From positions 1 to 30,681 of IMG/VR virus record IMGVR_UViG_3300025430_000014: a stretch of DNA of 30,681 nt; one strand, written 5' to 3'. Positions 16,397 through 17,413 of this stretch are shown here, in pieces (the first letter of the stretch is position 1; each line of letters starts with the position of its first letter). A model generated the notes under the pieces. The model saw only the letters and a program-made list of their open reading frames with translations. It was not told the origin of the DNA and searched no databases. The position numbers and the translations under genes were made by a program. The stretch comes from a virus. Taxonomy: Duplodnaviria > Heunggongvirae > Uroviricota > Caudoviricetes.

Positions 16397-17413
16397 TTAA
16401 TAGTTGAGGTTATATTTTTCTTTTAATTGTATAAGTTTTGTAACATAATAATATGTACCTCTTTTCATAGAGTCTTCATTATTAGCCACCTTAGTTATTT
16501 GACTGTCTTTAAAAGGATCTTTTCCTGTATGGTAGAGTCCTTTATAGAAAGCCTGATATCCAGGCATGTCATTAGATGTAATTCCAGCATTGTGATATAA
16601 ACCTAGCTTATTTACCTTCTCTATATCATCTGATGCCCAAGAGAAATCCATTTCTGGAATGTTTTTAGTTTCTTTATCTTTCAACCAAAGGTTCCATAAC
16701 ACAGCCCACATATCAGCACACCAGCTTTGGAATCCTTTATTCTCATCAGCAAAGAATTGTTTGTTGATGTGTTGTAAGTATCTTCTAATGATAATACAAT
16801 CATTCATCACCTTTGCCCAGAAATTAGCATCCACTCCTTTAAGGAAGTATTGTGCTCCTCCTGAATTATCATTGTTAGCTTCTGCTATTTCCCTAGTGAT
16901 ACCTATTAAGCTTGTTATTTCAGCTAGTACATCTCTAGTTTTATATTCTTCTAGCTTCTCTGGAAGCACATCAGCTATTTTACTATCAAAATATGAAGCG
17001 TTGATGTAACTATTTGTATCTGATAGATAACAAATGTCATCAGCTATGTAGTCATCTATATTAAACTTATCTGTAAAGAGGATATCACAATCACAATAAA
17101 ACACTGCTTTGCTAATCATCTCTGGATGTTCTTTGAAATATCTCATTAGAACATATGGACGTAAAACAGGAATATACACATTCAACACTTGACTAACATC
17201 TCCTTCATCTTTATAATAAGCAAACTCTGCTTCTGGATATAAATCCTGAATCTTTTGCCACTTATCACTTTTTTCTCTAAAGCTAGGAGTGTACACAAGT
17301 ACAATTGCCTTATCTGAATATCCAAGTTCTTTCAAGCTTTCCAACCATGCATGCACCTGCCAAGTATAGTAGGTATCATCTGGCTGGGCACAGATAAACT
17401 TTAAATCCTTCAT
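16397..17413 (-). CDS. GT-A glycosyltransferase resembling plant peptidyl-serine galactosyltransferase (GT96) and Hyp arabinosyltransferase (GT95)
   Basis: DxD in VFYCDCDILF, plus YYTWQV, YIPVLRP, GGAQY and WCADMWA motifs in the order seen in SGT1/HPAT. Confidence 0.6.
   Translation of the reverse strand: MKDLKFICAQPDDTYYTWQVHAWLESLKELGYSDKAIVLVYTPSFREKSDKWQKIQDLYPEAEFAYYKDEGDVSQVLNVYIPVLRPYVLMRYFKEHPEMISKAVFYCDCDILFTDKFNIDDYIADDICYLSDTNSYINASYFDSKIADVLPEKLEEYKTRDVLAEITSLIGITREIAEANNDNSGGAQYFLKGVDANFWAKVMNDCIIIRRYLQHINKQFFADENKGFQSWCADMWAVLWNLWLKDKETKNIPEMDFSWASDDIEKVNKLGLYHNAGITSNDMPGYQAFYKGLYHTGKDPFKDSQITKVANNEDSMKRGTYYYVTKLIQLKEKYNLNY

Follow-up and report, generated by a model that had tools for sequence, protein, structure and literature searches.

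In 2023 Freeman et al. reportedly described, in Cell Host Microbe 31:1216, the glycosylation of virions in the mycobacteriophages Che8, Corndog and Myrna. Transferases encoded by mycobacteriophages modify capsid and tail-tube subunits and so give rise to a glycan coat (PMC11256854). This is the closest known phenomenon to what we propose for a gene of a tailed virus, found at positions 16397-17413 of the first 30.7 kb of a 94.7-kb IMG/VR viral record (IMGVR_UViG_3300025430_000014; completeness estimate 82 %); that whole analysed stretch of 30,681 nucleotides is referred to below as the window. Judging by gene neighbourhoods and a predicted structure, the product is likely to be a cytoplasmic, probably initiating, Thr O-glycosyltransferase for virion proteins. 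As in the mycobacteriophages, transferase genes and acceptor segments on major virion proteins stand in one genome, and a phage-encoded transferase together with Ser/Thr-rich virion segments was found in the phages that bear homologues, in the window's phage and in its relatives. The two systems differ in that their transferases are not detectably related (no Mycobacterium phage was among the 77 phage records that tblastn matched with the enzyme), and in that the acceptor proposed here is homopolymeric Thr and the gene usually lies in the head/tail module beside its presumed substrate.

The 77 matched records include phages of Lactobacillus, Enterococcus, Staphylococcus, Lactococcus, Clostridium and Chryseobacterium, among others. 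The enzyme gene lies directly 3' of the major tail protein gene in Enterococcus phage phiFL1A, Lactococcus phage 1706 and Clostridium phage phiCTP1, and directly 3' of the major head protein gene in Lactococcus prophage bIL285 and Enterococcus phage Planchet. Tail or head proteins of these phages end in Thr homopolymers (T5-T10). Thr-ended are the tail protein and capsid-like gp45 of phiFL1A and the tail tube and gp11 of phiCTP1, while in 1706 the tail protein and gp10 both end in T9-10 followed by HHD, and the bIL285 tail protein ends in T8-T9 and then RHD. The pattern recurs, with variations, in a Staphylococcus phage, Lactobacillus phage LP65, Planchet and Chryseobacterium phage MA9V-3; LP65 carries TTTETQTQ repeats on a protein shown to be structural by mass spectrometry. 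In Staphylococcus phage vB-SscS-F1 (L121:5773-7475) the annotation splits the major tail protein into two fragments of 76 and 90 amino acids (aa), the distal one bearing a T9 tail, and the 296-aa open reading frame (ORF) between them may be a mobile insertion of the intron or homing-endonuclease type.

We gathered 236 IMG/VR loci by way of six unrelated major-tail-protein families, with Thr tails trimmed from the queries (the phiFL1A family set includes 4 phage records), and scored the enzyme as present if a hidden Markov model (HMM) of a 49-sequence alignment found it within 10 kb. For four of the families the end of the tail protein was also scored for a run of at least 5 Thr. Enzyme and Thr tail occurred together at 13 loci of the phiFL1A family, 2 of the 1706 family, 14 of the bIL285 family and 5 of the phiCTP1 family, neither was present at 17, 29, 66 and 9 loci respectively, and the number of discordant loci across these four families was 0. 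When any same-strand ORF with a T5 run was counted over all 236 loci, 36 had both, 2 the enzyme only, 4 poly-T only and 194 neither (odds ratio 873, Fisher p 1e-35, the loci being phylogenetically non-independent); one of the 'poly-T only' loci is on a contig that ends at the tail-protein gene. On trees built from the tail-protein cores, enzyme and Thr tail change together, on identical branches (5 for phiFL1A, 2 for bIL285, and 1 each for 1706 and phiCTP1), which amounts to 5 independent contrasts if well-supported branches are counted and 9 with the best trees, every one pointing the same way. Simple physical linkage fails as an explanation, because in bIL285-type phages the genes of the enzyme and the tail protein are 1.3-2 kb apart, with four genes between them, and because at locus L241 a 98 % identical tail protein is found with neither Thr tail nor enzyme.

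A scan of one genome per prokaryotic species gave 77 loci, 23 with a stand-alone enzyme and 54 with a fused one. At 8 of the 23 stand-alone loci a giant protein with up to twelve Thr runs is encoded immediately before the enzyme gene. The giant proteins at L128, L129, L130, L142, L149, L155 and L157 are 500-1570 aa long, have Thr runs as linkers and end no more than about 150 nt before the enzyme start, with the two genes overlapping in L128 and L157; such pairs were seen in metagenome-assembled genomes of Flavobacteriales, Chitinophagaceae, a gammaproteobacterium and a Rhodobacterales bacterium. The fused enzymes have a GT7C-like partner (GT, glycosyltransferase family) and all lie in chromosomes of Chitinophaga, Sphingobacterium, Pedobacter, Mucilaginibacter and their relatives, usually with a paralogue after them. 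Their 54 clusters hold a C39-peptidase ABC exporter (Pfam E 3e-35), HlyD, thioredoxin-like (thiol-disulfide) oxidoreductases, GT2 and DUF5672, and GG-leader precursor ORFs occur within +/-8 kb at 27 of the 54. Four GG-leader ORFs were scanned, of which one reached the TIGR04149 cut-off, two matched TIGR04149 and leader_Chryseo below cut-off, and one was unmatched; at the start of the predicted cores is a short Ser/Thr-rich stretch (..PTT.., ..STTTG..), with a Cys-rich domain after it. The chromosomal context again pairs the enzyme with a Thr-rich peptide.

These Bacteroidota clusters resemble the loci of glycocins, glycosylated bacteriocins whose transferases SunS and GccA belong to GT2, in having GG-leader precursors, a C39-ABC exporter and disulfide-forming enzymes. 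They differ from them in that the enzyme is not GT2 and that the predicted acceptor is the Ser/Thr-rich N-terminal stretch of the Cys-rich core, and we regard them as possible sources of glycosylated, disulfide-rich peptides of a new class. Example clusters (L135:1128-11530, L169:4064-16275, L175, L131, L152 and L180) contain 1-4 GG-leader precursors and 3-4 glycosyltransferases, the fused homologue included. Over phages and chromosomes together, the enzyme is tightly coupled in evolution to Thr tracts, be they on virion proteins or on exported peptides.

The 338-aa protein of the window belongs to PHROG 4417, labelled 'unknown function' (E 1.8e-51). The PHROG 4417-type family numbers 2076 clusters at 90 % identity within the length range used and 771 representatives at 50 % identity, and the source names encountered among its members are all 'hypothetical protein', 'bacteriophage protein' or 'prophage pi2 protein 34'. 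Searches of Pfam (E<=10), NCBIfam and PDB sequences with the window protein returned zero matches, all 240 matches listed in searches from deltaproteobacterial and enterococcal-phage homologues were without a Pfam label, and a literature search returned nothing on this enzyme family or on Thr-tailed tail proteins. A PDB profile search matched the NSGGAQ segment to a TALE repeat, which was rejected as spurious.

A first-pass annotation of the window, made from the letters and a list of ORFs, had picked out five motifs in a set order. All of them were located in that order (YYTWQV at aa 15-20, YIPVLRP at 80-86, VFYCDCDILF at 104-113, GGAQY at 185-189 and WCADMWA at 231-237). They fall on the columns that the family conserves best and are no chance strings. 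In the 49-sequence alignment (30-89 % identity) the residues Y80, D108, D110, Y136, F257, H274, K291 are invariant and R85, Y106, G185, G186, Q188, Q229 and D234 are conserved at >=90 %; two further alignments show the same pattern, and Y15, W18, Q19, W231, C232, W236 and A237 are also conserved or invariant (>=90 %) in an alignment of 10 sequences. The DxD motif D108-C-D110 is presumably the site for a divalent metal and the nucleoside diphosphate sugar (NDP-sugar), and H274, G277 and K291 may be the counterpart, with an insertion, of the GT8 metal/diphosphate motif HxxGxxKPW. The protein has no hydrophobic segment of more than 6 residues, and we therefore place the enzyme in the cytoplasm; its N-terminus is strand beta1 of the catalytic domain.

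An AlphaFold model made from 49 homologues (pLDDT 96.7, pTM 0.93) has a GT-A fold, in which a Rossmann-like alpha/beta/alpha domain carries the DxD where strand beta4 ends. Among solved structures the nearest folds are of the GT8/GT24/GT6 type, the best ones belonging to the retaining GT8-like class, and in a comparison with viral models the family members rank first and GT8-annotated giant-virus proteins next. Profile-profile comparison of the family with 15 Bacteroidota GT8 proteins by hhalign gave a probability of 92 % (E 6.5e-7) over the N-terminal 117 columns only (columns 3-132), in which D108-x-D110 is paired with the GT8 motif YLDsD. The GT8 profile itself (PF01501) matched neither the window protein (E<=10) nor any of the 132 relatives scanned. 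Identity to the retaining GT-A enzymes of GT8 that were compared, namely glycogenin (1LL2, 1ZCU), LgtC (1G9R), the Skp1 alpha-galactosyltransferase Gat1 (6MW8) and GlyE (5GVV), is 10-13 %, and the window protein has extra helical segments (~134-180, ~196-244) that are absent from glycogenin. By structure it is closest to GT8-type enzymes, yet by the family profile it does not count as a GT8 member; the confident GT8 placement that the first-pass annotation had named, together with a lack of peptide transfer, as fatal to its own reading did not materialise, the match being restricted to the N-terminal half. Longer family members are fused to GT2, GT6, GT7C, GT25, GT29, GT32-like and methyltransferase domains, and because of such fusions the domain can be placed in glycan-building proteins.

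The same annotation had read the protein as a plant-type (SGT1/HPAT-like) peptide O-glycosyltransferase. The plant families GT95 and GT96 are both retaining peptide O-glycosyltransferases, which counts in favour of a kinship, and plant HPAT and SGT1 enzymes are Golgi membrane proteins that act on hydroxyproline (Hyp) or Ser. The chemistry proposed for the window enzyme is alike, a first sugar on the hydroxyl of a repetitive extended peptide (extensin in the one case, poly-Thr in the other), whereas the enzyme differs in being soluble, cytoplasmic and Thr-associated and in having zero profile matches. Membership of GT95 or GT96 as originally worded found no support: the HPAT profile (PF23452) matched nothing at E<=10 in the window protein and nothing at thresholds of 0.01-10 in the 132 relatives, and together with that of DUF7164 (PF23741) it had zero matches in the phage's own genome and in five phage records. 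Nor was either found in 5 + 401 + 401 bacterial genomes (~800), although control genomes were equally unmatched, which makes these weak negatives. The window protein has no signal anchor and is not a membrane-anchored Golgi-lumenal enzyme of the GT95/GT96 kind.

The sole positive link to HPAT is a language-model lead and not an alignment, namely that 21 of the 30 nearest named ESM-Atlas clusters (cosine 0.96-0.97) bear an HPAT label on 10-58 % of their members, from 10 % in a viral cluster to 58 % in a bacterial one. Of the two plant families, GT95 is predicted to be GT-A-like, which would suit the kinship, and GT96 is predicted to adopt a non-GT-A fold, which would argue against GT96 membership and is itself a prediction only (PMC8476585). 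On this evidence we hold it possible, though doubtful, that the window protein is a prokaryotic-virus member of the plant/algal HPAT (GT95)/SGT1 (GT96) lineage, an origin that would be compatible with Thr O-glycosylation as its function. A wider proposal is more speculative still and on balance unlikely: that PHROG 4417 comprises uncharacterised and very widespread peptide Thr O-glycosyltransferases, which would cover heads, tails and fibres of Firmicutes and Bacteroidota phages with mucin-like glycan brushes as well as glycosylate bacteriocin-like peptides in Bacteroidota, and which would be the prokaryotic sister, possibly the source, of plant/algal HPAT/SGT1.

If the product of 16397-17413 is a Thr O-glycosyltransferase, a soluble GT-A enzyme of the retaining GT8-like structural class would transfer sugar from an NDP-sugar to Thr hydroxyls in homopolymeric Thr tracts of phage structural proteins, in the cytoplasm during assembly, by a Mn2+/DxD-dependent and probably retaining mechanism. 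In the window's phage four neighbouring GT-B enzymes may extend the glycan. The particle would then bear mucin-like glycopeptide tails or fibres, with shielding, adhesion to mucus or host glycans and particle stability as possible benefits.

An acceptor other than protein (a host envelope glycan, a lipid-linked intermediate or phage DNA bases) would reduce the Thr tracts to flexible linkers that lie nearby. GT8-like GT-A enzymes do mostly act on glycans (LgtC, WbbM, LARGE1), poly-Thr linkers are common in Bacteroidota proteins, and the GT2, GT6 and GT29 fusions would suit polysaccharide synthesis as well; but an enzyme that tracks Thr tails on homologous tail proteins in four families with no discordant locus, that sits in head/tail morphogenesis modules of temperate and lytic phages alike, and that is without a membrane anchor makes a non-protein acceptor very improbable. 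The DNA-modification variant is unsupported, with no thymidylate-synthase/hydroxymethylase-type or Tet/JBP genes in the 82 %-complete genome. Comparative genomics instead argues strongly for a Thr-rich acceptor, in keeping with the DxD glycosyltransferase acting on Thr-rich peptides that the first reading of the window had envisaged. Given a protein acceptor, the enzyme might still elongate a glycan whose first sugar is set on Thr by a host transferase or another phage transferase, as would be suggested by its close structural neighbours Gat1 (on Skp1), GlyE (on PsrP) and UGGT, which extend protein-linked glycans, and by the four more transferases encoded in the window. We give this only a slim chance. 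A Pfam search for GT2/GT1 in five small Firmicutes phage records (phiFL1A, bIL285, phiCTP1, 1706 and the Staphylococcus phage) found none, and the annotation of phiFL1A includes zero other glycosyltransferases; being the sole detectable transferase there, the enzyme would therefore act directly on protein in these phages and initiate. It would also be the natural initiator because it is the one transferase common to all Thr-tail phages, and elongation would need a host primer in Enterococcus, Lactococcus, Clostridium, Staphylococcus and Bacteroidota alike.

Several points count against an initiating Thr O-glycosyltransferase of virion proteins. The two 'enzyme only' loci of the 236 have a T-rich tail (TTTDPVTTTSTT) without a T5 run. 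Truly independent contrasts are few, and the conservative 5 give a sign-test p of ~0.06. In the window's phage no Thr tail was identified on the major capsid or tail-tube protein; the tracts are in mini-proteins, fibre-like proteins, a 1613-aa virion protein and an unassigned 386-aa protein. Host enzymes could in principle prime Thr residues. The window encodes five transferases, and sequence alone cannot show that this one is the initiator. Comparative genomics argues strongly that the enzyme can act as the first, and sometimes as the sole, transferase.

If Thr O-glycosylation is correct, glycosylated virions would be common and not a mycobacteriophage curiosity. The family has >2000 sequence clusters and is found in phages of enterococci, lactococci, lactobacilli, staphylococci and clostridia. 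Capsids and tails coated with glycan would differ in how antibodies recognise them, in the clearance of therapeutic phages, in mucus adhesion and in particle stability, and the pair of enzyme and Thr tag would be a simple, portable means of glycosylating proteins in the cytoplasm of bacteria. The bacteriocin-like clusters point to glycosylated peptides of a new class in soil Bacteroidota.

The features of the window are collected in Table 1. The enzyme gene does lie between Thr-tailed ORFs and apart from the other transferases, as had been noticed at the outset: the U-module mini-protein is upstream, the D-module protein and then the 53-aa ORF are downstream, and the block of four GT-B genes is 4 kb away. 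A functional link between that block and the enzyme is presumed.

Table 1. Enzyme gene, conserved motifs and neighbouring features in the window
Feature	Position	Strand	Remarks
GT-A glycosyltransferase, PHROG 4417	16397..17413	(-)	338 aa, open frame, ATG start
DxD motif, D108-C-D110	17084..17092	(-)	Invariant in three alignments; end of strand 103-107 in model
H274-N-A-G277 ... F289-x-K291	16541..16594	(-)	H274, G277, F289, K291 invariant columns (49- and 10-sequence alignments)
'U-module' mini-protein, 48 aa, candidate acceptor	17444..17590	(-)	~34-aa module (MAIPSxQIGW..LLWxISKQLE), then T7 and AAPR; module HMM E 5e-20
179-aa paralogue, fibre-like	17597..18136	(-)	U-module (HMM E 2.7e-21), then C1q-like head domain
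36-aa ORF, putative coding, possible acceptor	18373..18483	(-)	Ends TTSTTTTTKA
144-aa 'D-module' protein	15944..16378	(-)	~48-aa N-terminal module (LKAYVRYDGSGRV..ECC, HMM E 1.6e-30) and alpha/beta domain
53-aa ORF, candidate acceptor	15768..15929	(-)	Three Thr runs: T7, TTSTTTT, T7
137-aa ORF, candidate acceptor	27574..27987	(-)	C-terminal 45 residues are four Thr runs
Four GT-B genes, candidate glycan elongators	21365..27081	(+)	Pfam Glyco_transf_9, Glycos_transf_1
GT9-like member of GT-B block	21365..22363	(+)	
GT4-like member of GT-B block	22360..25008	(+)	
GT4-like member of GT-B block	25005..26021	(+)	
GT9-like member of GT-B block	26008..27081	(+)	

Neighbours were counted at 77 loci of an own-lineage set of 80 IMG/VR relatives (L039-L118), whose enzymes are 65-89 % identical. 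A U-module ORF with a Thr run stands directly upstream of the enzyme gene at 55 of them, and a D-module ORF with a Thr/Ser run directly downstream at 64; in most relatives the D-module runs into a poly-Thr/Ser tract. Divergence of both modules by codon position follows the order 3>1>2, and because it peaks at position 3 and is lowest at position 2 they evolve as coding sequence. In the 80 relatives the U- and D-modules head 133 and 137 ORFs respectively, which are 40-1280 aa long and range from a bare Thr tail to large domains, so that by their sequences the modules look like virion anchor or docking modules with exchangeable distal parts. The C1q match of the 179-aa protein in Pfam (E 2e-4) is under the curated cut-off, and a fold search with the AF2 model of the 144-aa D-module protein (pLDDT 82) gave no clear match. 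Counterparts of the small Thr-rich ORFs occur in relatives, as a 35-aa ORF with TTSTTTT in L052 and L054 for the 36-aa ORF, and as a 52-aa ORF in L039 for the 53-aa one. Elsewhere in the same phage, outside the window, Thr runs are found in the 1613-aa virion protein, two fibre-region proteins and the 386-aa protein, which has a C-terminal Thr/Ser tail.

The 137-aa ORF matches PHROG 14018 'major tail protein' through its Thr-rich C-terminus only; at least one PHROG tail-protein profile includes a poly-Thr segment, and such low-complexity matches do not amount to homology. A GIY-YIG/NUMOD3 homing endonuclease gene (14879-15481, minus strand) lies amid the arrayed small genes associated with the virion, and a 95-aa ORF is directly upstream of it. 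At 13828-14253 (minus strand) lies a Lys-rich protein with a C-terminal DUF6321 domain that matches many PHROGs of unknown function, and a very basic 42-aa ORF (18242-18370, minus strand) adjoins the 36-aa Thr-tailed ORF.

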